Part shown: positions 29,759 through 52,030 of the stretch, piece after piece
Layout: every line of letters starts with the position of its first letter
Position numbering within the stretch: the stretch's first letter is position 1
Origin: an uncultured delta proteobacterium
GTDB taxonomy: Bacteria; Desulfobacterota; Binatia; Binatales; Binataceae
Length of the DNA stretch: 64,000 nucleotides
Direction: 5' to 3'
NCBI GenBank assembly: GCA_963774705.1
Contig: CAVZFW010000015.1
Span: 138,046 to 202,045, forward strand
Translations under genes and position numbers: made by a program
The notes under the pieces: generated by a model
Databases searched by the model: none
The model's input: only the letters and a program-made list of their open reading frames with translations
Told to the model about the DNA's origin: nothing

Positions 29759-31111
29759 TTAGCGCATAATCATCATGAGGCCGCCAGGGCTGCCATATTT
29801 GACGCCGTCCAGGTACTCTTTGGGCGCGTTGTTATCGAGGTAGGGCTTACGCTTCCACGGGTTGCCGAAGCCGGACCAGATGGTCTCGTGCCCATTCTGG
29901 AAATCTAGGGCGGACGAGGCGACACCGTCCCATGCGGAACCGAGTCCCGGCACTTTGCCAGCATCGTTGTACCAGGAAATCGCCTTCCATAGTTTGCGGT
30001 TCGAGTCGTACAGATCCGTCCAGTCGCTGTTCCAATGCTCGCGGTCGACGTACATTATGCGGCTCGAATAGCAATAACCTGTGGCTTCGCTCGGGATCCG
30101 GTGGACATCGTCTATTGCCATCGCACGCGCTTCCCATTTGCCCCAAGAGGGTTTGGGGAAACCGAGCGGCATATCGTAACCGTCAGGGAAAATCGCACCA
30201 TCCTCGTTGAAGTGGGCGAGCGTCAGGATATTGCGATCGCCTAGAAAGTCTCCCGTGTAGATCGAAGTGCTGCCGTTGAAGCCATTGGTCTTGGCGTCAT
30301 CGTAGGTCCAGTCAAAACCGAATAGCGGTGCGCATCGGGCGGTGCTGGAGAGACGCAGCGAACGCCGCAAGGACGGCACGAAGACGAAGACATCGGGAAA
30401 AGGATGCGCTTCTTGGTCAACGTAGAACAAGTCGAGCGACGTGGTATAGCGCGCCTGTTCGGGAGTTTCCTCCATTTCCCATTCTGTATACCAAGTGCCG
30501 GGTGCGTAGGTCTGCTGCACGGGGAAGCCCGGATCCGTGTTGAAGTCGCTCCAGCGATAGACGACGTCGACCGTGGTCTTATTCGTGTTGCCAAAGCGGT
30601 CGGCGGACCAGATCGAGCCATAGTTCTCCGGGCCGTTCACATAGACGGAAGGCACAAACGACCAGAATACGTTGGCGAGAATCTTCCAGCCCTTGTTCGG
30701 CTCCTGCGGGTTCGGGAAGGGCGTGCCGCCGTGGTAATTCTTGAGCACATAGTGGCCGTTGGGCAGCACTTCGACTTGGGTCTGCGGACCGTATTTCTCG
30801 GTCGCCTCGACCCAGGTCTTGGGCAGGAAGGTGTTATAGACGGCTGGTCCGATCGGCATCTGGATGTCGGACGGCATCTTCCAGAAGTAAACGCCCTCGA
30901 ACAGCTTCTGCATGCCGAGCGGCATGAACTGTTTGTACTGTTGCCAGTTGGCCATGGTGATAGTGCCGCTGGTCGGCGCCGCACCCTGTTTCTGGGTGTC
31001 TTTCACCCATTGATCCATCTCGCTGCGGTCGGTGGAGGCCTGCGACCATCCCAACGACGGAAATAGGGCAATTGCTAGCCCCGCCGCAATTATAAGGGTC
31101 AGATTCCTCAT
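29759..31111 (-). CDS. DUF1329-family periplasmic protein (copy B, intact)
   Basis: Start moved to ATG 31111 (AAGGAA RBS). Signal peptide MRNLTLIIAAGLAIALFPSLGWSQA. Family hallmarks MANWQQYKQFMPLGMQKLFEG, GGTPFPNP, KGWKILANVFW, ending GSPGGLMMIMR. Confidence 0.9.
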   Translation of the reverse strand: MRNLTLIIAAGLAIALFPSLGWSQASTDRSEMDQWVKDTQKQGAAPTSGTITMANWQQYKQFMPLGMQKLFEGVYFWKMPSDIQMPIGPAVYNTFLPKTWVEATEKYGPQTQVEVLPNGHYVLKNYHGGTPFPNPQEPNKGWKILANVFWSFVPSVYVNGPENYGSIWSADRFGNTNKTTVDVVYRWSDFNTDPGFPVQQTYAPGTWYTEWEMEETPEQARYTTSLDLFYVDQEAHPFPDVFVFVPSLRRSLRLSSTARCAPLFGFDWTYDDAKTNGFNGSTSIYTGDFLGDRNILTLAHFNEDGAIFPDGYDMPLGFPKPSWGKWEARAMAIDDVHRIPSEATGYCYSSRIMYVDREHWNSDWTDLYDSNRKLWKAISWYNDAGKVPGLGSAWDGVASSALDFQNGHETIWSGFGNPWKRKPYLDNNAPKEYLDGVKYGSPGGLMMIMR

Positions 31112-31149
31112 ACGGTTCCTTGACCGGTCGTTGATGCCCCGCTTCGGCC

Positions 31150-31336
31150 ACCGAATCGCGATCGCCTTGCCACCCTTGGCGGTAACGTCCGCGACCGTGC
31201 GGTCAGCTCCTCCCTGTCGGAAGCATAGTTCACCGTGACCGCAGCACCCATTGCCGCCGGCCCCTTCGCGAGCGCCGCTCCGATCCATTTCGACGCGCCG
31301 GTAACGGTCGCCGCTTTTGCCTGCCGGTTTGTTCAT
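31150..31336 (-). pseudogene. SDR N-terminal remnant (spurious 5-prime extension of the 29759-31336 ORF)
   Basis: ATG 31336 with AGGAGAG RBS. GKAATVTGASKWIGAALAKGPAAMGAAVTVNYASDRE in one frame, then GADRTVADVTAKGGKAIAI in another. Only about 60 aa of an SDR. Confidence 0.55.
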
Positions 31337-32717: not shown

Positions 32718-33095
32718 ATGTTATCCCGCGTCACACGTGAGCCGTGGTGCTGGGTGATTCGAGCAGCTCTTGCAATGGTGGTACGGCAGCCCGCGCTTGC
32801 TTCGGGAGGCATGATTGAGGACGCAGCCGCGGCGCTCTGCTTATTTTGCATCCCATTCCATGCGATCATTCCTTTTACGCTCATGATTTGGTCAATGCGC
32901 AGGGGCGCGTCAACGGATCTGAGACGCAACGGTGCCGTTGCAGGTCTGGTTGCCGGAGCGATCGGGGCCACTGTCCATTCGTTCAGTTGCCAGGGCGATT
33001 CGTGGGTGTTCGTTTTCCTCGGTACAGCGGCGCGCCCGCGCTATGCTCGATCATCGGAGCACGACTTGGACCTCGAGTGCTGCGCTGGTAGCTAG
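32718..33095 (+). pseudogene. NrsF (DUF1109) anti-sigma C-terminal fragment
   Basis: CLFCIPFHAIIPFTLMIWSMRRGASTDLRRNGAVAGLVAGAIGATVHSFSCQGDSWVFV parallels the C-terminal TM region of the intact DUF1109 protein at 47329-48027. Confidence 0.5.
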
Positions 33096-33309
33096 CACTT
33101 CGCGAGCGACGGACCCTCCCCAACTTTTTACCCGGAAACCCGCTCCGTTGTAACGGCCAGACGTCCGAACGATTGCAAGAGGAGACGAATATCTGCCGCG
33201 TCTGTTCATCGTAATGACTCGCATATTTGTTGATAGTTCGCTGACAAGATCGCTGGCCTTCCTTGATCGCTTTCCAAAGCATTCGAACATCCGCCCGCCG
33301 CCAGACGAC

Positions 33310-33843
33310 CTAGTCGACTTGCTCGCCGATAATGGATGATGACGCATTCAAACCCGTGTTTTGCTTCCCTGGCAGTGCGGACGCTGCAGCGCCCGCTGCT
33401 CTCAGCCCGAAAACGCGACGCACAAAGAAATCGACGCTCACCCACCCGGGTCCGGAAAGCAGCAGCCACAGATACGCTAGTGCATAAAGAGGCTCGTCGA
33501 GCTCAACGAAGTCGTCGATGCTGCTCACCCTCTTCAAATTTACTTTGAGTATTGCGACCAGCATGTTGATGATCATCGGTATCGAAATCAGTCGTGTGCC
33601 GAGTCCTACAATTGTAAGCCACCCGCCGATGAACTCTGTATATGCCGAAAGGGTCGCGTTGAAGTATGGATAGGGGATACCCCAGCCGGCAAACCGCTGC
33701 GCGAACCCGTCGAGATTGTGAAGTTTGCCCCACCCCGTCTCCATGAAGAAGTAGCCGACGAAGAGCCGCACAAGGAGTTGCGCGAACCACTCCTGCAGAT
33801 CAATCCAATCGAGAATTTGTTCAATTTGCTTCCGAATTTGCAT
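33310..33843 (-). CDS. DoxX-family membrane protein
   Basis: 177-aa ORF. LLVRLFVGYFFMETGWGKL, YTEFIGGWLTIVGLGTRLISIPMIINMLVAI are typical DoxX helices. Confidence 0.85.
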   Translation of the reverse strand: MQIRKQIEQILDWIDLQEWFAQLLVRLFVGYFFMETGWGKLHNLDGFAQRFAGWGIPYPYFNATLSAYTEFIGGWLTIVGLGTRLISIPMIINMLVAILKVNLKRVSSIDDFVELDEPLYALAYLWLLLSGPGWVSVDFFVRRVFGLRAAGAAASALPGKQNTGLNASSSIIGEQVD

Positions 33844-33924
33844 GAGTTTCTATTTCTGAGAGCTCGTCGCGCTCCGTGCTTTCGCTTCTGATTGCTCACC
33901 TGAGAGTTCCTCACGAGGAAATCA

Positions 33925-34581
33925 TTATGCGACAGAACGCTCCCGTTCGATCAAGTTCTTAAGGGCGTGGCGAGCTCGATGCACGCGGATCTTGATAGCG
34001 TTTGGTGACACCGCGAGCATTGCGGCCACCTCCCCTATGTCAAGATCTTCGATGTCCCTTAGGAGAAGAACTGCACGATAGCTTTCCGGCAATTGGTCGA
34101 TACAACGCCGCACCATTTGACGAGTCTCACGCCGGTGCACGGGATGCATGTCGCCCCATCCAGTCTGGTCAAATTCGTCGACCCATCGGCCAGCATCGTC
34201 GAACCGTGTCGACAGATCCTCGATCGGTAACTCGGGCCGACGCCGTCGGGAGCGCAGCTGCATTAATGCGGCGTTGACGACTATTCGATGAAGCCAGGTT
34301 GATAGCTTTGCGTCGGCATTGAAGCCAGCAATAGCTCTGAAAGCAGAAGCCAACGCCTGCTGGACGGCGTCTCGAGCGTCGTGCTCATTTCCCAACAACT
34401 TCCGCGCGGTCGCAAACATCCGGGCCCCGTATCGTCGCACCATCGTCTCGAACGCATCTTTGTCGTGCGCCTTGAGGCGCCTGAGAAGGTCGAATTCGCT
34501 GTGCAAGGCTGGCGCTGATAACGACGATGAGGGTATGTCGAGCAACTGTGCCGAGAAAAACTCAGAGTGTTCTGTAAGCAT
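33925..34581 (-). CDS. ECF-type RNA polymerase sigma-70 factor (sigma 1)
   Basis: Region 2 AFETMVRRYGARMFATARKLLGNEHDARDAVQQALASAF...STWLHRIVVNAAL. Region 4 LPESYRAVLLLRDIEDLDIGEVAAMLAVSPNAIKIRVHRARHAL. AAGGAG RBS. Confidence 0.9.
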   Translation of the reverse strand: MLTEHSEFFSAQLLDIPSSSLSAPALHSEFDLLRRLKAHDKDAFETMVRRYGARMFATARKLLGNEHDARDAVQQALASAFRAIAGFNADAKLSTWLHRIVVNAALMQLRSRRRRPELPIEDLSTRFDDAGRWVDEFDQTGWGDMHPVHRRETRQMVRRCIDQLPESYRAVLLLRDIEDLDIGEVAAMLAVSPNAIKIRVHRARHALKNLIERERSVA

Positions 34582-34796
34582 GACTCCTTTTTTTTCAGTT
34601 TCCGGACGAGCTACCGCCCGATTCGAGCGGCGAAGACTCGGTCGGAAGAAGTCTCCCTTTCACGGGAATGACGACGCCGAAGTGGCTCGACCTCGTGCTT
34701 AGCTGAATCCGCGAGCCTCTTCTTCGCTCTGCATCGGAGCTGGTCGGTCACACAGCGAAGTAGTGTTTTGGAGCACTAATCTCATTGTACTTAGTA

Positions 34797-34822
34797 CTTC
34801 GGATTATCCCTTACGAAGTTAC
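34797..34822 (-). promoter_or_regulatory. ECF-type promoter motif, site 6
   Basis: Minus strand reads GTAACTTCGTAAGGGATAATCCGAAG. 216 nt upstream of sigma 1. Confidence 0.55.
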
Positions 34823-35355
34823 AGGTCGAGCTGAGAAACCTTGGCGGACTCACGAGCATCTCATTGGTCGAGACCGTCGGTTTTCGAGGCCGCCAAACGA
34901 CGGCGGATAGCCATCTCGAGAGCCAATGAAACCCGCAAAGCAGTTCGGAATCGAATTAGTCGGAGAGTCTTTACCAAAGGTCGGCGCCGACCCGCTGATT
35001 AACCCCGTAGGAGAGGAATTATGGATATAAGGCGGTGCGGTTGTGGAGGGCGCAGTCAGCGCTTGATTTTTGACCGCACCCATGTTCACGCGGGACTCGT
35101 CAGAAAACTCGAGCGAGGCGAACGTGAAGTGCGGAGCTGGCGAATAGCTGCAAAGCTCCGAGTTCTCGTAAGAGCGAAAACCACAGCTGCAAGCGGCTGA
35201 ATTCCTGCAACGGCTAGTATTTGGTGATAACTTCAGCCGCCCAAGAATGTATGGAGAAAGGTGGTCATCTGGAAGGTTCAAAGTAGATACGGGAACCTCG
35301 AACCGGATCGGCCACGACAGAAATCCAATCAGGGCGCGCACTCAGCAGGTTAAGT

Positions 35356-36216
35356 ATGAATCGATCAGATTTCGCAGCGCTCGGCTTCGGCATTGGCCTG
35401 CGCCGTTCCCATTATGCACATATCCTGGAGAATCGTCCGCGGTTGGACTGGTTCGAGGTCATCTCGGAGAACTTCATGGTTGAAGGTGGCCGACCCCTCG
35501 AAGTCCTGGAGGGTGTGCGAGCTCAATATCCGATCGTAATGCACGGTGTGTCGCTTTCTATTGGCTCGACGGACCCGCTCAACGTTGTATATTTGAAACA
35601 ACTTGCGAAGATCGCGCGACGCTTCGAGCCGGCCTGGATCTCCGATCATCTATGCTGGACCAGCGTGGGCGGTCGCAATTTGCACGACCTTCTGCCTTTG
35701 CCTTACACCGAGGAGGCAGTTCGCCACGTTGCCGCGCGCCTCAGACGGGTACAAGACATCCTCGGGCGCACTCTGCTACTCGAAAACGTCTCGAGCTATA
35801 TTGCATTTACTTCATCGCAGCTCTCAGAGTGGGAATTCCTCAGCGCCGTGGCTCAGGAGGCCGACTGCGGCATCCTGCTCGACATCAACAACATATTCGT
35901 CAGCGCATTCAACCATCGCTTCGACCCGGTCGGTTACATCGATGCGGTACCCTTAGGACGGGTGATGCAGTTCCATCTTGCCGGCCATAGCGACCATGGC
36001 ACCTACCTGCTCGATACCCACGATCATCCGATTTGCCCAGAAGTCTGGACCCTCTACGAGCACGCGGTACGGCGGTTCGGTCGAGTTCCGACGCTTATCG
36101 AATGGGATGACAATATTCCGGAGTTCGAAGTCTTGGCCGCGGCTGCGGATGAGGCATGCCGGCGATGCGAGTCAGCGCTCGGCGGGGAAGGATCGGGCAC
36201 GGAAGAATGGACTTGA
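35356..36216 (+). CDS. bufB: MNIO family enzyme (DUF692, BufB/MbnB-like)
   Basis: 286-aa intact ORF. GFGIGLRRSHYAHIL...DWFEVISENFM, MHGVSLSIGSTDPL, WISDHLCW, LLENVSSY, ILLDINNIFVSAFNH, TLIEWDDNIP are canonical DUF692 blocks. Confidence 0.9.
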   Translation: MNRSDFAALGFGIGLRRSHYAHILENRPRLDWFEVISENFMVEGGRPLEVLEGVRAQYPIVMHGVSLSIGSTDPLNVVYLKQLAKIARRFEPAWISDHLCWTSVGGRNLHDLLPLPYTEEAVRHVAARLRRVQDILGRTLLLENVSSYIAFTSSQLSEWEFLSAVAQEADCGILLDINNIFVSAFNHRFDPVGYIDAVPLGRVMQFHLAGHSDHGTYLLDTHDHPICPEVWTLYEHAVRRFGRVPTLIEWDDNIPEFEVLAAAADEACRRCESALGGEGSGTEEWT

Positions 36217-37055
36217 CTCTTTCCGAACTCCAAACTTCGCTCTATCAACTGATCACGAATCCTGAGAGAGCAAAACGGATCGGCGACGACGGCGACCCCG
36301 TTTTGGGCCACGCAGAAGCATTGATCCGCGGCGACTCCCGCCTGAGCGCGAGCGAGCGGGTGACGATTTATGCCAACGCCTATTTCTATCGGCTGCTCGA
36401 CTGCCTCTATGAGGAATTTCCTGCGACGTCCGCTGTCGTTGGTGCGGACAACTTTGTCGCCCTCGTACGCGACTACTTGCGGGCGTGGCCTCCCACTGAG
36501 CCATCGATATTCTATATGGGCCGACATCTGAGTGCCTTTCTTCGCGACCATGCTTTCGCCAGGCGCTGGCCCTTCACTTACGAACTAGCGAGGCTGGAAA
36601 GGACGATTCTGGAGGTCTTCCATGCGGCCGAGGTCTTCACACTCAGCGACCAAGCGATGCGCGCTATTCCTTCGTATCAATGGCCTACGATTAGATTGAA
36701 GATACATCCAGCCGTCCAAATCCTGCACAATGAATGGCGCGTGACGGACGTATTGGGCGATGTTCAGACCGGTCGTGAATGCCGCGAGCCCGCGCATCAA
36801 AAGTCGCCAGTGATCGTGTGGAGACAAGACGCGGAGGTGTATTATCGCGCTCTGGAGGACGCAGAAGCTAAAGCGCTCGTCCTCTTGTCGGAAGGCGCAC
36901 GTTTCGCCGCAATTTGCGAGGTCGTTGAAGCCCTGACGTCGACGACTGATCAAGTAGCTCTCATTGGTCGACTATTAGCGCAATGGTTGGCGGATGGGAT
37001 CCTTGTGCGCGCTGACTTGGCGCTCACAACGTCCACGATTACTTCACGAATCTAG
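36207..37055 (+). CDS. bufC: DUF2063-family protein (BufC-like MNIO partner)
   Basis: ATG 36207 overlaps the DUF692 stop by 10 nt. LQTSLYQLITNPE...ALIRGDSRLSASERVTIYANAYFYRLLDCLYEEFPA is the DUF2063 N-terminal signature. Confidence 0.8.
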   Translation: MDLTLSELQTSLYQLITNPERAKRIGDDGDPVLGHAEALIRGDSRLSASERVTIYANAYFYRLLDCLYEEFPATSAVVGADNFVALVRDYLRAWPPTEPSIFYMGRHLSAFLRDHAFARRWPFTYELARLERTILEVFHAAEVFTLSDQAMRAIPSYQWPTIRLKIHPAVQILHNEWRVTDVLGDVQTGRECREPAHQKSPVIVWRQDAEVYYRALEDAEAKALVLLSEGARFAAICEVVEALTSTTDQVALIGRLLAQWLADGILVRADLALTTSTITSRI

Positions 37056-37159
37056 GACGTGTACGAAGCCATCCGGGGCCGCCGCACCGTCCGAAACGCT
37101 TATCGCGGTCGCGAGGTAGGGTTCGGCGTTGCAGCAGGACGGGTCATGTCGCGGACATT

Positions 37160-37675
37160 CTAATCCTGACCTTTGGGCGCTCCCGCTATCGGGGCGAAAA
37201 AGGGTGCGCAACTGTCGCGAAGAGTCTGATGGCAGTTTGCATCCGCCGCAATTTCATCTGTCAGCGGGAGCGAACTCAGGACGACGGCATGGGTGTTCGC
37301 GAAACATGCGACTACGCGCGTGGTGGCGTCGCGATCGGTGATTGCGATGATTGCATCGTGGCCGATCGCGACCGCTGACGGCGAATAAGTGTCGCCAAGC
37401 GTTGTACACATGCAGTGCTGATGCCATTCCTCAACATTCGTTTCATGGAGCGCCGCAAGCACGGCATCATGACAGGCGATGCGGGCCTGCTGGATTGCAT
37501 GACAGAAGTCGTCGTTGTCGCAGTGTAGCGCGGTGGCCGGCCATCGCGTCACGGTGCCACAAGCGGTAAGGAGAAGAGCGCTAATGAAAATCAGAAGCCC
37601 GGCCGTGGGTTTCTGAAATTTATGAGTCGGGAGCTGGTTCGCATTCACGGAGCCGCACGGGTTGCCGAGATTCAC
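37160..37675 (-). CDS. Cys/His-rich lipoprotein, hypothetical
   Basis: Lipobox LLLTAC. Mature part has HCDNDDFCH, IACH, HQHCMC, NCH, SCA. The start is GTG at 37675 or 37648. Abuts the peptidase stop. Confidence 0.5.
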   Translation of the reverse strand: MNLGNPCGSVNANQLPTHKFQKPTAGLLIFISALLLTACGTVTRWPATALHCDNDDFCHAIQQARIACHDAVLAALHETNVEEWHQHCMCTTLGDTYSPSAVAIGHDAIIAITDRDATTRVVACFANTHAVVLSSLPLTDEIAADANCHQTLRDSCAPFFAPIAGAPKGQD

Positions 37676-37676
37676 C

Positions 37677-38699
37677 TCAACGAATGTTGTTTAGCTGCCG
37701 TCTATCGGCGGCTATGGCGCGGCGGACCGATGCCCAAGGCGCACTACCAACAAAGGAGAGCGTTTTGCCGTCGACGTCGACCCCAAGCTTACTCCACAGT
37801 AGCGTCAAGTCCGGTGCGGCTGGAGCCGCCTTCATCTCATCATATAGTTGCAACAGCACCGGCACCCCGACGGCCTTACCACCAACCTCGAAAGCGTGGG
37901 TCAGAGGCCAGGCCGTCTCCATATTCCCACCGGCATCGACGATCGCTCGCAGCGCATCACGCAGGCCATAGCGATCTTTTGTCGCGCGGCGAATTCGGAC
38001 GTCAGCGAGCAGACAGAACATCGCACCGCCCCAGTATGTGCGGCCCCAGGTAGGCGTATGATCGAGTCCCTGGTCGCCGGGACGCGGCAGTCCGTACGGA
38101 AGTCCCTCCACTAAATCGCCCCAAACTTTCGTCGCGCTAATTTCGCCCGCCTCGTTTCGAGCGATCGGTTCGACGTAGGTTGCGATCCCCTCTTCTATCC
38201 AATGATGTTCAGTCGACACCGAGGGGAATGCGTAATGGACCATCTCGTGCGTCATCACCCAGTCGTTCTTGAGGTCGGCGTCGTCGGTTAGCTGACCCAT
38301 GTAAATCCGGGTAGAGACGGGGTGCGTTCCCCAACTTGTCCCACTTAGCACACCCTTACGATTCTCGACGGGAACGATCAAAATTTGCGCCTCGCGGACC
38401 GGAAAGCGGCCGTAATAGGTGATAACGGCTCTCGCCGCCGCAGTAACCCACGCGATGACATGTGTCACTGGAAGTTGAAGACTCCCCGGAGCGAATTCAA
38501 CCTTGACCGTACTATCATCGATTTTGATTGTACTCGGTATTAGCTTTGCGGAGCCGTCGATTGGGTGCACCGTTTGTTCGGTGGAAGTAACCATCTCCAA
38601 CAATCCGGCGCTCGCCGTCCGATTAGTCTCGAATCCATACGGGGCGAAGTTCGTCATCACGGAGGCGAAGAGCACCATGGCGAGCGCTAAGGTTTCCAT
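37677..38699 (-). CDS. secreted zinc metallopeptidase, peptidase-MA (M1/M61-like) fold
   Basis: Start at ATG 38699 (METLALAMVLFASV signal). HEMVH followed by WIEEGIATY (HExxH + E gluzincin arrangement). Confidence 0.65.
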   Translation of the reverse strand: METLALAMVLFASVMTNFAPYGFETNRTASAGLLEMVTSTEQTVHPIDGSAKLIPSTIKIDDSTVKVEFAPGSLQLPVTHVIAWVTAAARAVITYYGRFPVREAQILIVPVENRKGVLSGTSWGTHPVSTRIYMGQLTDDADLKNDWVMTHEMVHYAFPSVSTEHHWIEEGIATYVEPIARNEAGEISATKVWGDLVEGLPYGLPRPGDQGLDHTPTWGRTYWGGAMFCLLADVRIRRATKDRYGLRDALRAIVDAGGNMETAWPLTHAFEVGGKAVGVPVLLQLYDEMKAAPAAPDLTLLWSKLGVDVDGKTLSFVGSAPWASVRRAIAADRRQLNNIR

Positions 38700-39123
38700 T
38701 TCCACTAATGGGTTCGATCTTTCTGGAGCAACCGCCCCGTCAGCCGCGAACAAGCCTCGTGCAACCCAGTCGACTTTCTATTGCTCGTAAGATAGCGGGG
38801 ATGCCTCCCAATCTTTGCCCATGTTGCCATCACACGGCTCGGCTCGCCTCACTCGTTGCATTCGACTCTAGTAGCGGGAAGCACCGCGAGCTTTGACGAA
38901 CAACGCGCAAGAATCGCTTCGGAGAAGTTCTCCGACGGCATGCCTGAGTACAGCCTGGCAATCCATTGTTCTCGAACGGTTTATTCGAAAGGGTCATAAT
39001 TTCAGAAAAACGAGCAATAGAGTTGAGGAGTAATTCTCGCGAACAAACGGAGCAACGCTCCGACCTCGGCTACTATGACGAAGCTGTTCCAGAGCAATCG
39101 CGATCTTTCCTCTCGATCATTAT

Positions 39124-39330
39124 CTAGGCAACGACGTCGCATTTTTCCGCGGTCGATACGGGTGGACCGGGCAACGCAGTTCCCGTTCCCAGGACTTTCA
39201 ATACGCGCGAATCGTGCCAGACTTCGGGCGAGGAAAGCGCTCGGGTATTCTCCGAAGCAATTCCGCCCGGTTGAAGCTCAGTCGCAGTCCACTCGCTCCC
39301 GATGCTGAACGTTTCGTTTGCAGAATCCAT
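39124..39330 (-). CDS. 68-aa ORF created by duplication of the YHS/di-iron gene junction
   Basis: ATG 39330 is preceded by the identical 20-nt GAGTGAGTGAGGTCG leader found at 40194. MDSANETFSIGSEW parallels MDSASEPLHIDCEH. May be a remnant rather than a gene. Confidence 0.3.
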   Translation of the reverse strand: MDSANETFSIGSEWTATELQPGGIASENTRALSSPEVWHDSRVLKVLGTGTALPGPPVSTAEKCDVVA

Positions 39331-39384
39331 CGACCTCACTCACTCGTCGCCCTCTTTGAATGGGGCGTCGAGTTGCGACCCACC

Positions 39385-40194
39385 TTATGCCAAGCGCCTC
39401 TGCGAGTTGATTCTGTGAAACAGGTTGTCCGCGTCAACTCCCAGGTCTTCAAATGAGCGCCCGAGAGGAGCGAGAAGTGCTACCAGTTCACTGCGGACCC
39501 GGACCGCAGTGTTCGCCAGCAACGACATCTCGGCCCCAAGCTCGCAAGAGTGCTGGCGCGAAAACCTCGCATGCCGCGCCTCATCCGAGCGAACTCGGCC
39601 GAACATCTTTACCAGTGCAGTAGCGCGCGCGAGCGGCTTAACTACTGCCGGGAGGACGACGCAAACGGCTGAGTCAAGCGCCGCGACCCTGGCGAAATGA
39701 AGCGCGGGGTCTCGGCTGGCCACGCGTAAAAAGAACCGGCGCGTGCGCAATAGGGTGCCTCCAACATCGTTAGGCACAGAACAATAGCTGCGCAACTCTT
39801 GAATTAATCGCTCGTGTTCCAACTCGTCGGCAGCAATTCGATTCGCCAGAAATCGGCTATGGCCGGCCTGAACATTGGAGATCCGACGCCCTTCTCGCGA
39901 GAAGACCTGGAACGCCGATTCTTCGCCACAAAGCAGAGTTGGTAAGAGCCGACCGAGCGCAGTGACCTGATTGTTGGACAATACAGAAATGCTATCCCTG
40001 ATCCTGGCGATCCTGAGCCGCGGCGTTACTAGCGGACGACACGTCGGGACCAGAACGCGAGGCGAAAAACACACCGCATCTGAATCGGGGACCATTTCCT
40101 GATCGGCCACAATGCCGATAGCGTTCGTCTTAATGTCCACCTCCGGACGCTCGTGCTCGCAGTCAATGTGAAGAGGTTCACTTGCTGAATCCAT
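39385..40194 (-). CDS. hypothetical protein with ferritin-like di-iron-type motifs
   Basis: 269 aa from ATG 40194. LLCGEESAFQVF ... ADELEHERL and ... VRSDEARHARF give an E..(D/E)ExxH x2 pattern. Start overlaps the YHS gene by 17 nt. Confidence 0.45.
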   Translation of the reverse strand: MDSASEPLHIDCEHERPEVDIKTNAIGIVADQEMVPDSDAVCFSPRVLVPTCRPLVTPRLRIARIRDSISVLSNNQVTALGRLLPTLLCGEESAFQVFSREGRRISNVQAGHSRFLANRIAADELEHERLIQELRSYCSVPNDVGGTLLRTRRFFLRVASRDPALHFARVAALDSAVCVVLPAVVKPLARATALVKMFGRVRSDEARHARFSRQHSCELGAEMSLLANTAVRVRSELVALLAPLGRSFEDLGVDADNLFHRINSQRRLA

Positions 40195-40687
40195 CGACCT
40201 CACTCACTCCCTTCTTCGGATAAAACGGCCAGTTGCGATCGGCCGACGAAATGTTCCCGCTCTTGTTCAGCGACCAGAGGTGGTAGGAAAGGTAGTTATT
40301 GTTCAAATAGAGTTTGCCATCGACGATCGCCCATCGAGATGGATCTATGTCGGCAATGCGGTCTATCGCCATCGCGTAGGCACAGTAACCGCCGTACTGC
40401 GGAAGATATTTCTCCGGGTCGGACTCGAATCGTGCCAGGTTCTCGGCGGAACCGAATCGATACGTCACACCTCTCCAGCGGTAGGTATACTCGTTCACGC
40501 CAGCAGTTGGTTGGCCTATAGTGAAGTACGCCACCGGGTCATACCCTTTGAGGCCAGTACCATCTGCGGCGTTCACTGCAGCCACGGGCGTCTTTTCTGA
40601 AGCTGCTAGTGCGGAGCCCGCGCGATTCGCGAATGGAGCCACGACCAGTAGAAACCAAACCAACGCGAAGAATTGAAAGCGCTTCAT
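40178..40687 (-). CDS. secreted YHS-domain protein
   Basis: Signal MKRFQFFALVWFLLVVAPFANRAGSALA. GYDPVAYF...YRFGSAENLARFESDPEKYLPQYGGYCAY is the YHS-domain pattern. Confidence 0.8.
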   Translation of the reverse strand: MKRFQFFALVWFLLVVAPFANRAGSALAASEKTPVAAVNAADGTGLKGYDPVAYFTIGQPTAGVNEYTYRWRGVTYRFGSAENLARFESDPEKYLPQYGGYCAYAMAIDRIADIDPSRWAIVDGKLYLNNNYLSYHLWSLNKSGNISSADRNWPFYPKKGVSEVDGFSK

Positions 40688-40857
40688 AATGTCAATCATC
40701 CTTTGCATCTACACAAGAGTTATCTGTGGCGCAGATCGGACTTCATAAGGGCGTCCCGCTGAGGCCGACTCGGTGACAGTGACTGAGAGAGGAACGGTGG
40801 ATTTCACCACTCCGTGGTGTACGCGGTCCAACACCAGACACAGGCAACGTCGAAACC

Positions 40858-41055
40858 TTAAAGCTCCACCTGCACCTGCGCCGCTCCGTCCGTTTGCTCC
40901 TTAACCCACAAGACGACGCTGACCGCGTCCGCCGTTTCCTTCCATGGCAGCGGCACCCAATGGTCGCCGACTGCCACCGCCCACATATGTATGATCGAAT
41001 CGCGCCTGACGCGGATTACTTCGGTATGACTGAAATCGTAACTTAATCCATTCAT
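40858..41055 (-). CDS. 65-aa hypothetical protein
   Basis: ATG 41055 with GGAGGG RBS 6 nt upstream. MNGLSYDFSHTEVIRVRRDSIIHMWAVAVGDHWVPLPWKE. No family recognised. Confidence 0.4.
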   Translation of the reverse strand: MNGLSYDFSHTEVIRVRRDSIIHMWAVAVGDHWVPLPWKETADAVSVVLWVKEQTDGAAQVQVEL

Positions 41056-41131
41056 TGTTGCCCTCCAGTCGAACAAATAACTTTGCTCGAAGGGCCGCCC
41101 GACTCTTAAGTGCCGTCATTCCACTTTTCTT

Positions 41132-41458
41132 TCAAGGAGCCACAGCGGAGCTGATTCCCGCGCCTGCGAGACTCACGCCTTGTATGATGCATGACTCCGG
41201 ATCTCCTACCAGATCATGCTGGGAGTACAAATGCCCCGGCTTGCAGTTGTGTGATGCCTGAGGCCGAGCGTTAGCTGCAGATGGCTTGAGCCAGCTATCT
41301 TCGATAAACCCGGAGGGCGCGAGGTTATTGGACGAGACCATTTCGACCGCGCCGCTTACGGCTTGGAGTACAGTTGTTCCCGACCAAGCCGGAATTGCTG
41401 TGTTTGTCATGATTAGGCCGAAAACCGCAGCCGCTGTGCTTTTCTTGAAGCTCTTCAT
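41132..41458 (-). CDS. 108-aa secreted protein, paralog of 62999-63319
   Basis: ATG 41458 with GAAGGAG RBS. Signal MKSFKKSTAAAVFGLIMTNTAIPAWS. The C-terminal NCKPGHLYSQHDLVGDPESCII is shared with the 63319 protein. Confidence 0.6.
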   Translation of the reverse strand: MKSFKKSTAAAVFGLIMTNTAIPAWSGTTVLQAVSGAVEMVSSNNLAPSGFIEDSWLKPSAANARPQASHNCKPGHLYSQHDLVGDPESCIIQGVSLAGAGISSAVAP

Positions 41459-41531
41459 AATTACTCCTTCGGAAATTCCTTTATTTAAAAACTGATCTAT
41501 CCGTGTTGTACGCAGCTCCACCTATGGTTAC

Positions 41532-41557
41532 TTTCGGCTCCCGGTCCGGAAAGTTAC
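41532..41557 (-). promoter_or_regulatory. ECF-type promoter motif, site 4
   Basis: Minus strand reads GTAACTTTCCGGACCGGGAGCCGAAA. 74 nt upstream of ATG 41458. Confidence 0.6.
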
Positions 41558-41726
41558 AAAGACGAACTATTAGGATCGACGTCAAGACGAAAACACGGGG
41601 CCAGTTCTCGGTGCCGTTGATCGTTCGGATATCCGCCGATGTGGTCGAGCCAACCCCGATCGACGGGCCGGGACTAGTACGCTCGAACGTAATTGTTGCC
41701 GACATCCTTATTATAGTTTGCAGCCT

Positions 41727-41752
41727 GTAACTTTCGTGGGCCGCGCGCGAAT
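41727..41752 (+). promoter_or_regulatory. ECF-type promoter motif, site 1
   Basis: GTAACTTTCGTGGGCCGCGCGCGAAT. 95 nt upstream of ATG 41847. Confidence 0.6.
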
Positions 41753-41846
41753 TCCTCAAAGAAGGGAACGACAGACTGCATCGCACTGCCGCTTTCAACC
41801 GGCGGCTGGCACTCACAAACGGTAATTACCCAAAGGAGACGGGAAG

Positions 41847-42134
41847 ATGAAAGTAGCAAAGACGGGAGCCTTTCTGGCGACGGCGGTTGGGCTGATGTTC
41901 ATGGCCAACGTCGCATTGGCTCAAGAAAACGTTGCGGCGGCCGGCAGCGGCGCACCAACCACAGAGAGCGCGAAGGTGAAATGCCTGGGAGCCAATAGTT
42001 GTAAGGGACAGAGCTCGTGCAAAAGCGCGCAAAATGATTGCAAGGGACAAAACGCCTGCAAAGGTAAGGGCTTCATCGAAACGTCGAGCTCTCAGGAATG
42101 CACGCAGAAAGGCGGTATGCCGGCAACTAGCTGA
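41847..42134 (+). CDS. bufA: BufA2-like (six-Cys bufferin-type) signal-peptide precursor
   Basis: 95 aa, AAAGGAG RBS. Signal MKVAKTGAFLATAVGLMFMANVALA. Core KCLGANSCKGQSSCKSAQNDCKGQNACKGKGFIETSSSQECTQKGG has six Cys in CKG-type repeats. Confidence 0.7.
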   Translation: MKVAKTGAFLATAVGLMFMANVALAQENVAAAGSGAPTTESAKVKCLGANSCKGQSSCKSAQNDCKGQNACKGKGFIETSSSQECTQKGGMPATS

Positions 42135-42158
42135 CAGATTGTCGAATCTGTCCATGGC

Positions 42159-42196
42159 GGCAGGACGTTTTCCCTTGCGTCCTGCCGTTTTCGTTT
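42159..42196 (+). terminator. rho-independent terminator after the bufA-like gene
   Basis: GGCAGGACG-N10-CGTCCTGCC followed by GTTTTCGTTT. Confidence 0.7.
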
Positions 42197-42272: not shown

Positions 42273-43160
42273 TCAGTCGGGAGTTTTTCGATGTTTGTTC
42301 AGAACCTGATTCTTCAGGTAGGCGACAATAGGTGCGACTTCCTTAGGTTGCCATCCCTGGTAAGCCACCTTCCAGTCGACAGGCCACACTATTCTGAGGT
42401 CCTCTCGGACAGGAAGATCGGTGCGCTCATACAAGGATAAAGCCGCGATGGCCACGGTTCTTTGCATCTCTCGATCGTGGACCATCCCAAAAGGATGCCC
42501 AAAGGGAAATTCCACTCCCACAATACGCGGTAAACCGAACCGTTCCGCAAGATCGGGTAGCATCGTCACAAGAACTGTTGGAATTCCGGCAGCTTCAACG
42601 ATACGCGCCAGCACGGGCACGTTTCTACAGCAATCGGGTCAGCCGGGAGCCAGTATCAGAAGGTCGACATCCTCCTGCCGGAGCCGCGTCACGAGTTCAG
42701 GTCCATAGACATCGTGCCATGCGGTAGATGACCTTCCCTGGTAACCCATGAAGGAATAATGACTCTCGGCCAGAGAACCGATTCGTCCCTCTTCTTCGAA
42801 TTGCGCAAACACCTCGAGCGGAAGGGCGATATTAAAATCGGACACCACGTCATCGGGATTCAAATGGAGATGCGCGACCGCTATCTCATCCGCACCAACG
42901 TTGCGCGGAATAACGCGATACGTCGGGTCTCCCCACATTGGCTCTCGTCGCTCGCGCTCTAGGTCAAAGGATTGCTGCCGGTTTTTCAGATAGAGCCCGG
43001 ACGACGTCAGCAGCGTGACTCGCGCGCTCATTAAAGGCACCTTAGCTACGGCCTGCGCGAAGTCGCCGGCTTGGTACTGAAACGCCTTGAATTCCGGAAT
43101 CATACTGCGTGGCAGGAATTTGTACCCGTCTATTCTGAAGTCGTCATCGGCCTTTGTCAT
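42273..43160 (-). CDS. GrdB-family (glycine/sarcosine/betaine/proline reductase B-like) selenoprotein, UGA 42641-42639 read as Sec
   Basis: The two track ORFs (42639-43160 and 42273-42620) are in the same frame. The joined sequence VDLLILAPG-U-PDCCRNVPVLARIVEAAGIPTVLVTM...RIVGVEFPFGHPFG aligns with the GrdB Sec region as I recall it (DAVILTST-U-GTCTRCGATMVKEIERAGIPVV...IPHPLGNP). Confidence 0.7.
42600..42625 (-). promoter_or_regulatory. SECIS-like hairpin
   Basis: mRNA GAAACGUGCC-CGUGCU-GGCGCGUAUC is a 10-bp stem with one A-A mismatch and a 6-nt G/U-containing loop, starting 13 nt after the UGA. Confidence 0.5.
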
Positions 43161-43314: not shown

Positions 43315-44697
43315 CTATCGCATAATCAGACCGAGGCCACCGGGCGTCGTGTATCTCTCGAGGTCAAGGAATTCCTTGGGCGCCTGCTCGTTCAGATAAA
43401 ATGGCTCGCCTTCACCAGCTTCGGCGAAGACAGTCGCATGTGAATATTTTACATCCCAGAAGCCATAGACCATCGAGTTAGAGATATCCACCGGTCCAAT
43501 GCCTGGTACGTCGATTGTGCGTGGAAAGAAGGCGATAAAGCGCCAAGGTTGCATCTTCTCATCATAAAGGTCTTCCCAAAGCGGCGCAGACGTCGCTTTA
43601 TCGATGTACACCACCCGTTTGCCGAGGCAATGCCCTCCACCGCCCGCGATTTTGGTGACGCTGACGACATAGACATCTCTCAGTTGCCACTTCCCCCATG
43701 TGGGCTTTGGCCAGCCGAGCGGCATATCATAATTTGAGGGCAATCTGCCGGCCGGCATCGTGTAACCAACCAGCGCCAGAATCTTTTTTTCGGCAATCAA
43801 ATCGGCGCTGATCCGGGTCAGGTTGGAGTCAAATCCAAACCTCCGGTCGTCTGGCGTTTCGTCGGTTCCCAAATCAGCGCTGCATCGTGCACTCGGGGAT
43901 AGCGGCTGATAGCGACGCAGCGACGGAATAAAGACGTAAACGTCCTCTGAGCGAGCTAAATCGGCATAGGAAATGGTAAGGACAGTAGTATATCGCTCCT
44001 GCTCGGGCTCTTTGACCATCTCATATTGAGTGAAGTATTTGCCTTCCGCACCCGGAACATCACGTGGGATTCCCGGATCCGTATTGAAAGCCAGTTGCCG
44101 ATAAACTTTCATCCCAGCTTTGCAACTGATGCTGTTGCCATTGTCGATCGTACATACTACGCCATTGGTGTCGACGCTCAGATGCGGCAAATAGCGAAAC
44201 CATAAGTTGGCTAGAATCTTCCATCCCTTGTGCGGCTCTTCGGGCTTTGGAAAGGGCGTGCCCCCCTCGTAACCGGCGAGCGTCAAGCCACCGTTCGGGA
44301 GCTCTATAGCCTTGACCTGGCCCGCGTATTTTTCGGTAGCTTCAACATAATTTTTGGGCAACGGATGGACGATCGTCGGCCCGATTTCCATCTCAACGTC
44401 TGGTGGCATTTTCCAGAAATATTTCCCGTCGAACAGTGCCGCCATCCCATCAGGCATATATTTGCGAAAATTCGTCCAGTTCTGCATCGTGATCTTGGCT
44501 TCCGCAGGCGCTGTATCTGAGGCGTTCGCCGCGCTACCTTCGGGGCCACGCGCTGAGGCGGCGTCGCCGGACGGAGTAGTTTGCGCGCGCACGATTGCAG
44601 ATCCGAGCCCGACCGCCAGGACAACGACAAGCGCCGCGAAACTCTCAAAGAGCCGGAGTCGCTCTCGACCCCGCGCTGATTTCTTCACCACAAACAT
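43315..44697 (-). CDS. DUF1329-family periplasmic protein (copy C, divergent, intact)
   Basis: 460 aa with a signal peptide. ITMQNWTNFRKYMPDGMAALFDGKYFWKMP, GGTPFPKPEEPHKGWKILANLW, ending TTPGGLGLIMR. Roughly 40% identical to copy B by eye. Confidence 0.85.
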   Translation of the reverse strand: MFVVKKSARGRERLRLFESFAALVVVLAVGLGSAIVRAQTTPSGDAASARGPEGSAANASDTAPAEAKITMQNWTNFRKYMPDGMAALFDGKYFWKMPPDVEMEIGPTIVHPLPKNYVEATEKYAGQVKAIELPNGGLTLAGYEGGTPFPKPEEPHKGWKILANLWFRYLPHLSVDTNGVVCTIDNGNSISCKAGMKVYRQLAFNTDPGIPRDVPGAEGKYFTQYEMVKEPEQERYTTVLTISYADLARSEDVYVFIPSLRRYQPLSPSARCSADLGTDETPDDRRFGFDSNLTRISADLIAEKKILALVGYTMPAGRLPSNYDMPLGWPKPTWGKWQLRDVYVVSVTKIAGGGGHCLGKRVVYIDKATSAPLWEDLYDEKMQPWRFIAFFPRTIDVPGIGPVDISNSMVYGFWDVKYSHATVFAEAGEGEPFYLNEQAPKEFLDLERYTTPGGLGLIMR

Positions 44698-47328: not shown

Positions 47329-48027
47329 TCAACCGGGGGGTTCAGTACGTGGAATGCGGCGAGGAAATCGGAGCAAGACAGCGCCAGCCCAGGTTGAAAG
47401 CGCAATAAGCGTGAACGCGGGCAACAGGTGCCAGGTGAGCAGATGCAGTGGCTCGTCGATCGGACAGACGATCCGCATCAGCGCAAATGAGAAAAACATC
47501 GCGCCGGCGCCAATTAACGACCCTGACAGCCTGCCGCGTGTCGGGAACCCGCGGCTCACGAGCCACCACAGCAGCAGCCATGGCGTCGCGGCCAGCACCA
47601 GCGTCTCGCTTGCGCAGCGCAAACCAAGGTGGAGAAATTCCTGTAACTGATAGTCGATCCGGATTGGTGCGCTGACAGTTATAAGCACGATACCGGCCAG
47701 CACCAAGGTCACCCCGAGGATGGTTTCGGCCGCGCGCAGTGGCCGCCCCGGGATGGCCGAGCGGAGGGCGAGTATCGCCGAGATCATCGCGGCGGCAACA
47801 AAGAGCACGATCTCGAGCGCATAAGCTGGCCGGTGTTCGAGCTTAGGCAGGAAATCATTGTCGGTATGCGTGATGACCCACGCCAGGACGCCGACCTCCA
47901 GGAGCATCCAGAGCACCAGCCGTACCCGCACCGGCCGCAGCCGGCGCGCCGGCTTGATCTCGTGCGCCAGCCGGCTCACCAATTCACGATGATGCTCTTC
48001 GTGGGTCCTTTGCGATAGTTCGGGCAT
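47329..48027 (-). CDS. nrsF: NrsF-type anti-sigma factor (DUF1109), intact
   Basis: 232 aa, six hydrophobic helices, immediately follows the ECF sigma with no gap. LVSRLAHEIKPARRLRP...LVLWMLLEVGVLAWV pattern of DUF1109. Confidence 0.75.
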   Translation of the reverse strand: MPELSQRTHEEHHRELVSRLAHEIKPARRLRPVRVRLVLWMLLEVGVLAWVITHTDNDFLPKLEHRPAYALEIVLFVAAAMISAILALRSAIPGRPLRAAETILGVTLVLAGIVLITVSAPIRIDYQLQEFLHLGLRCASETLVLAATPWLLLWWLVSRGFPTRGRLSGSLIGAGAMFFSFALMRIVCPIDEPLHLLTWHLLPAFTLIALSTWAGAVLLRFPRRIPRTEPPG

Positions 48028-48579
48028 CTACTCGCCGATTAGCCTTTTCAAAGCCTTGTACGCACGATGCGCTCGCACCTTCAGGGCGCCGACCGAGACC
48101 CCGGCCCGGGCCGCCGCTGCCTCGACCGACAATCCGTCAAGCTTCAGAAGCGAAAAGGCCTGACGCTGATCGGACGGAAGTTTGGCGAGAATTTCGTCGA
48201 GCTCGGGTGGCGCGGTATTGGAGCTATCCGCCGGCCGTTCAGGCAGCTCCGCGACGAGCTCTTCCCAGTGAGCGCGCGACCAGCGGCGGCGCGTGTAGTC
48301 GGCGGCAATGTTGCGCGCGATCGCAAAGAGCCAGGGCTCAAAGGGACGGCCCGGCTCGTAGGTGTGACGCGCTTCGAAGATTGCCATGAACACTTCCTGA
48401 TAGACGTCCTCGAGTTCATGCGGGTCGGCCACGCGGCGTCGCAAAAAGTACGTCAACGACGGCCCAATATCGTCCAGCAGCGCACTGCATGCGCCGGAAT
48501 CGCCCTGCTGCAACTGCTCCATCAGTCGAGCGCGGCGGCGAGTGCGCTCAAGACGCTGGGCTTCATCCGACTCTTTCAT
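48028..48579 (-). CDS. ECF-type sigma factor (sigma 2, SigF-like, paired with NrsF)
   Basis: Region 2 ELEDVYQEVFMAIFEARHTYEPGRPFEPWLFAIARNIAADY. Region 4 LPSDQRQAFSLLKLDGLSVEAAAARAGVSVGALKVRAHRAYKAL. The true start may be Met20 (48522), see findings. Confidence 0.9.
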   Translation of the reverse strand: MKESDEAQRLERTRRRARLMEQLQQGDSGACSALLDDIGPSLTYFLRRRVADPHELEDVYQEVFMAIFEARHTYEPGRPFEPWLFAIARNIAADYTRRRWSRAHWEELVAELPERPADSSNTAPPELDEILAKLPSDQRQAFSLLKLDGLSVEAAAARAGVSVGALKVRAHRAYKALKRLIGE

Positions 48580-48603
48580 TCTCCGCGCTCAGCCAAAAGT
48601 TAC
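48578..48603 (-). promoter_or_regulatory. ECF-type promoter motif, site 2
   Basis: Minus strand reads GTAACTTTTGGCTGAGCGCGGAGAAT. Its last nucleotides overlap the annotated ATG of sigma 2. Confidence 0.5.
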
Positions 48604-48730
48604 TCGGGAATGTGCCATGTCCATCGCGCGAGCCATGGACGCAGCGAGCATAGCCATTTTGAGGACGTGGTGACAGCGCGGCTCGCGAATGTCGCTAAGG
48701 GACCTTCCGCGGGATGATCGCACCAAACCC

Positions 48731-48756
48731 GTAACTTTTGAAGCGCCAGCCGGAAT
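48731..48756 (+). promoter_or_regulatory. ECF-type promoter motif, site 3
   Basis: GTAACTTTTGAAGCGCCAGCCGGAAT. 55 nt upstream of ATG 48812. Confidence 0.6.
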
Positions 48757-52028: not shown

Positions 52029-52030
52029 TT

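Follow-up and report, generated by a model that had tools for sequence, protein, structure and literature searches.

A 64-kb stretch of the genome of an uncultured soil bacterium of the Binataceae, hereafter the window, carries what its sequence identifies as a bufferin-2 (Buf2) system, i.e. a copper-stress system of peptides that are made by ribosomes and modified after translation (RiPPs), whose own precursor gene has died. The maturation enzymes, BufB, an oxidative enzyme dependent on multinuclear non-heme iron (an MNIO), and its partner BufC, are encoded by intact genes at 35356–37055; the precursor gene directly upstream of them has decayed to a pseudogene; and the sole intact precursor gene in view is a stand-alone bufA2 at 41847–42134. 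We infer, with a probability of roughly 0.6, that BufB and BufC modify the product of this distal gene in trans. We favor this reading because purifying selection on BufB persisted after the adjacent precursor died, and because the cysteine spacing of the distal core is the same as that of the adjacent-type BufA2.

Bufferins are the largest family of MNIO-made RiPPs and a widespread copper defense, and they make use of a folded core together with a Sec signal peptide. In the series of events that we envisage, an ancestral bufA2-bufB-bufC operon would have lost its adjacent bufA2 by frameshifts, with BufB and BufC retained. Upon copper or oxidative stress, the anti-sigma factor NrsF would release a SigF-type sigma factor, which would transcribe the stand-alone bufA2, an operon of doxX and a gene for an extracytoplasmic function (ECF) sigma factor of 218 amino acids (aa), the gene module divergent to the stand-alone bufA2, and msrPQ. 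BufB and BufC would then turn cysteines of the BufA2 core into 5-thiooxazoles in the cytoplasm, in trans, and the Sec system would export the product, leading to copper buffering in the periplasm. It has been reported that forming the thiooxazoles requires BufB together with BufC, that the two suffice for it, and that the signal peptide is dispensable for modification (PMC11626156).

The enzyme pair and its lost precursor gene

Family membership of the enzymes was judged against curated NCBIfam cut-offs and Pfam profiles. bufB (35356–36216, + strand) scores 386.1 bits with the bufferin maturase model NF050167 (MNIO_BufB; cut-off 310 bits), covering profile positions 1–261 of 262, and 373.8 bits with PF05114; against the DUF692 structure PDB 3BWW the protein gives E = 2e-52, with all metal-ligand motifs kept. 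bufC (36207–37055, + strand) is an intact, fast-evolving gene for a DUF2063 partner (PF09836, 63.7 bits; cut-off 27.2 bits), and its ATG at 36207 produces a 10-nt overlap with bufB. The sole NCBIfam model that BufC matches is HvfC, with 62.3 bits, under the cut-off of 142 bits, and a PDB sequence search with BufC returned nothing useful. A preliminary description of this DNA had named the DUF692 gene, the DUF2063 gene with its 10-nt overlap, and a DoxX gene (33310–33843) and an ECF sigma gene (33925–34581) divergent from them; all four are borne out, the last two lying on the minus strand with Pfam support. Among the features of a Buf2 system, the window therefore has a BufB-type MNIO maturase and a DUF2063 (PME-type 1) partner encoded directly after it; a working precursor gene directly upstream of the MNIO gene, in one A-B-C operon, is absent.

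Was such a gene ever there? The closest relatives of BufB come from Binataceae ("Candidatus Binatus") metagenome-assembled genomes (MAGs), with 65–80% identity. Of 19 Binataceae genome loci, 17 have an intact bufA2 immediately upstream of bufB, as do most metagenome loci. By this comparison, the ancestral operon is bufA2-bufB-bufC. The canonical Binataceae operons (e.g. L003–L016) are orthologous to the locus in the window (BufB 65–80%, BufC 38–56% identity) and are accompanied by a divergent ECF sigma gene and a conserved downstream gene for a 366-aa protein, whereas the module of the window and of L161, our main comparison locus, is without an intact precursor gene, without the 366-aa neighbor, and without the relatives' type of ECF sigma factor.

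The remains of the cognate precursor gene (35021–35289, + strand) sit in the 775-bp gap between the ECF sigma gene and bufB. Three-frame translation of the gap yields pieces of a BufA2 core in two frames, "ANVKCGAGE*" and then "ANSCKAPSSRKSENHSCKRLNSCNG*YLVITSAAQECMEKGGHLEGSK*", and upstream of these pieces the pseudogene retains an ATG (35021) along with a good ribosome-binding site. With the intact distal precursor as the query, tblastn gave a match here at E = 1e-10; once its frameshifts are repaired, the pseudogene reaches 43.2 bits with NF050166, the BufA2 model (cut-off 60 bits), and one fragment matches a BufA2 hidden Markov model (HMM) at E = 8.6e-5. The preliminary description had held that no cysteine-rich precursor precedes the DUF692 gene and that 41847–42134 is the only recognizable one; it was right that no intact precursor gene stands there, but the decayed bufA2 had been overlooked.

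The decay took place in situ, and its relative age can be read from L161, a metagenome contig collinear with window positions 33098–39097 at 93.4% nucleotide identity. Both copies of the pseudogene, which are 91.0% identical, lack 8 nt just past ATGGA and have a +1 insertion by which a TAG arises. A Cys-to-Arg change, one TAG, and a stop in the signal-peptide frame are private to the window, and a 1-nt deletion and a different TAG are private to L161. Because two frameshifts are common to both and further lesions are private to each, the adjacent bufA2 must, to judge from the alignment, have been inactivated before the window and L161 split and have been drifting since. The same alignment took in the intact adjacent bufA2 genes of L001, L002, and L084, with which the pseudogene is 63–67% identical at the nucleotide level, and it marks the pseudogene as the orthologue of the relatives' adjacent genes. 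We considered whether the pseudogene might be an assembly artefact, which is ruled out by its presence in L161 and by an independent Logan assembly with the same 34-aa and 59-aa open reading frames (ORFs) at identical offsets. The 59-aa ORF (35021–35200) was also considered as a new gene, and was rejected in that neither its length nor its sequence is conserved in L161.

Loss of the adjacent precursor is not confined to this lineage. In one Binataceae MAG (L007, ~9800–10000), bufB and bufC are intact with no bufA2 upstream, and bufB directly adjoins the sequence found beside bufA2 in L006; the gene was cleanly deleted here, in a second loss independent of the first.

In this part of the family the gene for the partner is evidently labile, since the sister clade of the window's BufB on the BufB tree (L001, L002, L086, L093) kept bufA2 but lost bufC: in these loci bufA2-bufB is followed directly by the gene for the 366-aa neighbor, with no DUF2063 gene between (bufB at ~10001; at 851 in L086). 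Either these MNIOs work without BufC or their partner is encoded elsewhere. The 366-aa protein was considered as a replacement for BufC in L001 and L002 and dismissed, as it is an ordinary downstream neighbor in BufC-bearing loci too, and it is absent from the window. The short BufC of another locus (L169) is due to a contig end that cuts the gene.

The stand-alone precursor gene

The distal bufA2 (41847–42134, + strand) starts 4,792 bp past the end of bufC, with minus-strand genes between. It encodes a 95-aa protein with a predicted Sec signal peptide (MKVAKTGAFLATAVGLMFMANVALA/QE, called by inspection only) and a six-Cys core, in keeping with a Buf2 precursor, and it scores 83.9 bits with NF050166. 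The preliminary description had picked out this six-Cys protein and had stated that a failure against bufferin precursor models would count against its reading; when the model was run, the protein passed. We scanned all 1,557 six-frame segments of the window with the BufA2 profile and two BufA1 queries and found no other intact precursor; the BufA2 HMM matched only the distal gene and fragments of the pseudogene, and the BufA1 queries matched nothing.

The protein belongs to a tight clade of ~95-aa homologues at 69–96% identity, far above the 43–58% that it shares with the adjacent-type BufA2, and its cysteines are spaced 5-5-6-5-13, exactly as in the adjacent type. Across 45 clade members the Cys-rich core is near-invariant, including all six Cys and their neighboring residues, and dN/dS (the ratio of nonsynonymous to synonymous substitution rates) between the distal gene and clade members is 0.07–0.11.

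The distal gene also forms a transcription unit of its own, which places it in the class of stand-alone precursors with no adjacent MNIO gene. A SigF-type promoter box (TGTAACTTTCGTGGGCCGCGCGCGAA, 41726–41751, + strand) lies 96 nt upstream of the ATG, and an intrinsic terminator (42156–42189, + strand), with a 13-bp stem, eight G-C pairs, and a T-run, closes the single-gene unit; the promoter and terminator that had been ascribed to the gene are both there. Both are conserved. Among nine clade loci that were searched, a SigF-type box stands 96–104 nt upstream of the 95-aa gene in eight, where the background rate is 0.012 per kb and strand, with TGTAACTT-N14-CGAA as the promoter form of the clade, and a hairpin homologous to the terminator follows the stand-alone bufA2 of L083.

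How are the two bufA2 copies related? Because the pseudogene is 63–67% identical to the relatives' adjacent genes and only 52% identical to the distal copy, the two appear by sequence to be old paralogues, the distal one a member of a conserved stand-alone clade; the same figures led us to reject a recent duplication of the adjacent copy as the origin of the distal gene. They bear equally on the possibility, raised in the preliminary description, that a rearrangement separated enzymes and precursor by moving the original adjacent gene 4.8 kb away. The region does have scars that such an event might leave: synteny with L161 breaks at 33098 and 39097, L161 10829–10874 matches window 39143–39098 in inverted orientation (46 bp, 98%), and a 54-nt direct repeat surrounds the gene for a 272-aa protein. 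However, the original copy survives as the pseudogene, having decayed where it stood, and the distal gene, so different from it in sequence, belongs to another conserved clade, stands alone in many genomes, and has its own conserved promoter. We consider such a move extremely improbable.

We sampled the genomic context of the stand-alone gene at ten places, with 3–10 kb visible at each. In two of the ten, the window and the more distant P0013 contig, a bufB-bufC pair without an intact adjacent precursor lies 2.7–4.8 kb from the 95-aa gene. On the contig that carries P0013 (80% identical), the order is DoxX and 218-aa ECF sigma (both minus strand), an 832-bp gap, MNIO, DUF2063, a homolog of the window's 358-aa protein p358, a YHS-domain gene, and the 95-aa BufA2, with no precursor-sized gene in the 832-bp gap before the MNIO. 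The two contigs have MsrPQ, DUF1329, DoxX, the 218-aa ECF sigma, the p358-like gene, and the YHS gene in common.

Stand-alone precursor genes of the other class were seen too. BufA1 (PF10048) genes without a nearby MNIO occur in L165 and in L169 (4144–4449), and in L165 (6922–7224 and 7960–8247) one lies 700 bp upstream of a stand-alone 95-aa bufA2, after a porin gene.

Selection on the enzymes since the precursor was lost

If the adjacent precursor was already dead when the window and L161 diverged, then the differences between the two record how the enzymes have fared since. We compared them against a baseline of 55 other closely related pairs of buf2 loci, in which dN/dS is 0.09–0.24 for BufB and 0.16–0.57, typically ~0.26, for BufC. 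Between the window and L161, dN/dS is 0.15 for BufB, 0.20 for both the 218-aa ECF sigma and DoxX, 0.36 for p358, 0.40 for the 171-aa protein p171, and 0.875 for BufC. BufB is as constrained as in canonical operons and is under strong purifying selection, and BufC evolves about three times faster than normal.

Fast evolution need not mean that BufC is dead, and several observations led us to discard that idea. The 849 bp of bufC contain no indels, where ~10.6 would be expected from the 19 in 1,515 bp of non-coding DNA (P(0) ~2e-5), and there are no stop codons in the window or in L161 (L161 7718–8563). The replacements avoid columns that are conserved among other Binataceae BufCs (7/89 versus 45/193; Fisher p = 0.0016), and the BufCs of the window and of L161 each keep 80% of conserved positions, within the 71–98% of normal BufCs. 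Recombination or assembly error was likewise set aside as the source of the divergence, with dS of bufC ordinary at 0.136 and only 24 substitutions in neighboring bufB. The changes fall on both branches, that of the window and that of L161, and their cause could be relaxed constraint or adaptation. A more specific and quite tentative idea, which we think improbable but worth stating, is that BufC has been retuned to the paralogous, trans-encoded precursor after the adjacent one died, such that its rate is the trace of a substrate switch and not of relaxation; we entertain it because the excess change is confined to variable positions, with the reading frame and the conserved core kept. If it were true, the locus would be a natural experiment on how MNIO–partner complexes acquire a specificity for precursors or widen it.

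The purifying selection seen on BufB calls for a substrate of some kind, and it does not specify which. Could BufB and BufC now modify something other than BufA2, as the preliminary description had also allowed? The faster change in BufC could reflect altered partner recognition, and a candidate is close at hand in p108 (41132–41458, − strand), a 108-aa secreted protein that has a signal peptide as well as two conserved Cys and a number of His ("NC(K/R)PGH.YSQHD.VGDPESC"); a precursor outside the window is another. We nonetheless regard a different substrate as distinctly unlikely, given that BufB scores as an equivalog of the bufferin maturases, that the distal BufA2 is the sole sequence in the window to match a bufferin precursor model and has the core Cys spacing of the lost cognate precursor, and that p108 travels elsewhere with bufA2 and not with bufBC.

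Promoters, sigma factors, and a SigF-type regulon

The motif TGTAAC-N15-17-CGAA occurs in four exact copies in the window, against 0.17 expected, and each copy is correctly placed upstream of a gene. Besides the box of the distal bufA2, these are TGTAACTTCGTAAGGGATAATCCGAA (34798–34823, − strand), an exact match upstream of the operon of the 218-aa ECF sigma gene and doxX; TGTAACTTTCCGGACCGGGAGCCGAA (41533–41558, − strand), which serves the p108 gene and possibly the genes after it; and a box at 53174–53199 (− strand) upstream of msrPQ, i.e. msrP (52031–53026, − strand; NF003767, 467.3 bits) and msrQ (51378–52154, − strand; NF003831, 171 bits). Divergent SigF-type boxes are also found at the stand-alone genes of L164 and L166–L168. 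In Caulobacter, the SigF site is GTAACC-N16-CGAA (PMC3511200), and the SigF regulon comprises sigF-nrsF, buf1, buf2, and yedY (msrP) (PMC3511200, PMC11626156).

A candidate sigma factor for these boxes is encoded in the window. At 47329–48579 (− strand), a 183-aa SigF-type ECF sigma gene (48028–48579; Sigma70_r2 and Sigma70_r4_2 profiles) is followed by the gene for an intact NrsF anti-sigma factor (47329–48027; 232 aa), which matches NrsF profile positions 1–204 of 204, and near-consensus boxes stand beside the sigma gene at 48579–48604 (−) and 48730–48755 (+). An ECF sigma gene followed by NrsF, together with target promoters of the GTAAC(C)-N16-CGAA type, is what characterizes a SigF/NrsF regulon, and by the evidence of the boxes msrPQ, the ECF218-doxX operon, the divergent secreted-protein gene, and the distal bufA2 share one. 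The 183-aa SigF-type factor is the likely reader of the TGTAAC boxes. The 218-aa ECF sigma beside bufB is then not the sole candidate regulator, and it is probably not the reader of the SigF-type promoter. An NrsF gene fragment at the left edge of the locus had suggested that loss of the anti-sigma factor made the regulon constitutive; this idea was dropped in view of the intact SigF-NrsF pair.

Divergent from sigF-nrsF lies a gene for a secreted thioredoxin-like protein (48689–49393, + strand), at which the near-consensus box 48730–48755 (CGTAACTTTTG...GGAA) is found; it is probably another member of the regulon.

Weighing modification in trans

Several points weigh against the proposal that BufB and BufC act on the distal precursor, and the first concerns expression of the enzymes. 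The + strand ahead of the pseudogene and of bufB showed no SigF-type box, and no other convincing promoter was found upstream of bufBC. The relatives likewise have no SigF-type boxes upstream of their adjacent bufA2 genes; they use a GGAACC-type box and a different ECF sigma factor, which is only 26–29% identical to the window's 218-aa protein. Where the relatives carry this box (GGAACCGTGGCC), the aligned position in the window and L161 reads GAAACCTTGGCG, GGAACC having been mutated to GAAACC in the window. A weak candidate for an ECF-type promoter, GGAACC-N17-CGAC (35292–35318, + strand), lies 64 nt upstream of bufB; it is the sole such site in the window and is kept in L161 with one substitution, and its role is speculative. 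Expression of the pair and its co-regulation with the precursor are therefore presumed, and bufBC transcription is the main gap in the argument. The preliminary description had offered, as one option, that the enzymes act in trans on a co-regulated precursor: action in trans is the best supported of its options, but the SigF-type box is present for the precursor only, with none before bufBC.

Further points concern the pairing itself. In eight of the ten sampled contexts (L081–L083, L164–L168), there is no MNIO gene within the visible 3–10 kb of the 95-aa gene, and in L161 there is no distal bufA2 within 3 kb of the module; the proximity of bufA2 and bufBC in the window may reflect clustering of the SigF regulon and not a dedicated enzyme–substrate relationship. 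The signal peptides of the two bufA2 paralogues differ, and preliminary unpublished evidence has been mentioned that the signal peptide is part of recognition by BufB–BufC (PMC12452194). The near-neutral dN/dS of BufC could mean that its function is fading, and bufB of L161 shows, at the counterpart of window position 35694, a 1-nt deletion, which is either a real frameshift or an assembly error. Finally, only 64 kb are in view, and other MNIO/partner pairs or precursors may exist elsewhere in the genome.

Taken to their conclusion, many of these points describe a bufBC pair that is an unexpressed or unneeded relic, with the stand-alone BufA2 matured by an MNIO/DUF2063 pair outside the window. 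The want of a promoter, the rate of BufC, and the possible frameshift in L161 would all be explained; most members of the 95-aa clade must use distant enzymes anyway, if no MNIO lies near them; and the anti-sigma fragment and the synteny breaks show that the region has been rearranged. A relic, however, would hardly be expected to show BufB constraint since precursor loss that equals that of canonical operons, or a BufC gene free of indels and stops whose replacements spare the conserved columns, and the pair is also intact on the P0013 contig. We judge this account unlikely, though one to be taken seriously.

The eight contexts with no MNIO in sight bear on another suggestion, namely that the stand-alone BufA2 works unmodified, or in a function that does not involve BufBC. 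Stand-alone genes occur commonly, and this alternative has been stated in print for surplus precursors (PMC12452194). Yet the six Cys and their neighbors are near-invariant in the clade, dN/dS is as low as 0.07–0.11, copper binding by the Caulobacter bufferin requires the thiooxazoles (PMC11626156), and genomes without an MNIO and partner seldom have precursor genes (PMC12452194). An unmodified role for the distal protein is thus very unlikely, and modification in trans by BufB and BufC remains the reading that we prefer.

Relation to known systems

The nearest characterized counterpart is buf2ABC of Caulobacter vibrioides (CCNA_03001-02999, also CC2907-2905), with which the window shares a six-Cys BufA2 with a Sec signal, the MNIO BufB, and the DUF2063 protein BufC. 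The resemblance extends to the Caulobacter SigF-NrsF copper/chromium regulon, which likewise has the GTAAC-N16-CGAA promoter, doxX, msrP (yedY), and sigF-nrsF. In Caulobacter, however, the operon begins with the precursor gene and all three buf2 genes are under the SigF promoter, whereas in the window the adjacent precursor is dead and the SigF-type box is found only before the single-gene precursor unit, with none recognizable for bufBC.

The split layout as such is already known, and the trans hypothesis is already in print; the present locus is a well-documented example. Antoine et al. 2025 (PMC12452194) reported that considerable fractions of the Buf1 and of the Buf2 precursors have genes at a distance from MNIO genes, that some stand-alone precursors are true single-gene units, as is the non-adjacent precursor of the window, and that in some genomes several precursors coexist with one MNIO/partner pair, which perhaps serves them all. 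In their survey, Buf1 clusters contained sigma and NrsF genes and Buf2 clusters did not; the window and many of its Binataceae relatives differ in having an ECF sigma gene beside a Buf2-type cluster. Neither an adjacent precursor that has decayed nor evidence from selection is described there (PMC12452194).

What is new here is the decayed adjacent precursor, the selection on BufB after its death, the unusual rate of BufC, the ECF sigma genes beside Buf2-type clusters, and the SigF-type divergent module around the stand-alone gene. The locus gives evolutionary support to the proposal that one enzyme pair serves several precursors, because the enzyme has been under strong selection long after the precursor died and the sole intact precursor in view is a nearby stress-regulated unit. 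A parallel exists in the prochlorosins, lanthipeptides for which one modifying enzyme, ProcM, serves precursor genes scattered in the genome, although both the enzyme class and the chemistry differ and many of the prochlorosin precursors share a conserved leader peptide. Additionally, 35356–37055 together with 41847–42134 offers a clean enzyme–precursor pair for in vitro work, the association with ECF sigma factors is extended to Binataceae Buf2-type clusters, and an unannotated metallopeptidase family of the M1/M61-like type is flagged as a recurrent neighbor of such clusters.

Neighboring genes and traces of rearrangement

Upstream of the pseudogene, the DoxX-family membrane protein gene (33310–33843, − strand) lies downstream of the 218-aa ECF sigma gene (33925–34581, − strand; Sigma70_r2 and Sigma70_r4_2) in the same operon, and the pair is found also on the P0013 contig and in L161. 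The DoxX protein, which is BufD-like, scores 72.9 bits with PF07681 and 73.3 bits with the HvfX family, below the cut-off of 80 bits for the latter. Beyond it is the second NrsF gene, a fragment (32718–33095, + strand) that matches only NrsF profile positions 93–180 of 204: its N-terminal half is missing, and a C-terminal "...GARLGPRVLRW*" is in another frame. The fragment lies exactly at the left synteny break with L161, where synteny begins at 33098, which suggests a rearrangement junction.

Downstream of bufC, the 6-kb module common to the window and L161 contains p171 (37160–37675, − strand), of 171 aa with a lipoprotein-like N-terminus, and p358 (37677–38753, − strand), a predicted exported zinc metallopeptidase. 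Neither Pfam nor NCBIfam has a family for p171, p358, p108, or the 272-aa protein p272, and PDB sequence searches with p358 and p272 gave nothing useful. p358 has at least 6,987 homologues, annotated as "hypothetical", and has an N-terminal anchor helix and an invariant HExxH...E motif. Its AlphaFold2 model (predicted local distance difference test score 83.9) has an M1/M61-like gluzincin fold, with 7xyo_A as the best Foldseek match (E = 2e-7). Homologues stand beside bufB/bufC in several lineages (L031, L049, L064, L099, L161, and the P0013 contig), and from the model and these neighborhoods p358 may be an unrecognized accessory of some Buf2 clusters.

p272 (39385–40203, − strand) has two ExxH motifs and is faintly rubrerythrin/COQ7-like. 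The 54-nt direct repeat that brackets its gene (39292–39345 and 40156–40209; 76% identical) duplicates the "MRSMDSA" start of p272, which suggests that the gene was inserted or duplicated at its site, just past the end of synteny with L161.

The module divergent to the stand-alone bufA2 includes, in addition to p108 (also called as 108 aa in the Logan assembly), a gene of the YHS-domain (seleno)protein family (40178–40708, − strand; NF041384, 144.1 bits, cut-off 70 bits) and a conserved ORF of ~65 aa (40858–41055, − strand; "...EVIRVRRDSI.H.WA.AV.DHWVPLPWKETADAV..."). YHS genes are found at the corresponding place in L082, L164, L166, and the P0013 contig, and homologous 64–65-aa ORFs occur in L082, L164, L166, and L167. 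The usual divergent partners of stand-alone bufA2 genes are a conserved secreted protein of ~105 aa with two Cys and several His, the 65-aa ORF, a YHS protein, and sometimes a 183-aa protein.

Two DUF1329 (LolA-like) proteins flank the region (29759–31336 and 43315–44697, both − strand), and DUF1329 genes recur near stand-alone bufA2 genes and buf operons in L082, L083, L164, and the P0013 contig. Convergent with the distal bufA2 is a GrdB-like gene (42273–43160, − strand), in which two ORFs form one frame of 295 codons with an in-frame TGA at 42639–42641; judged from the context of this TGA, LLILAPG-U-PDCC, the product is probably a selenocysteine-containing protein.

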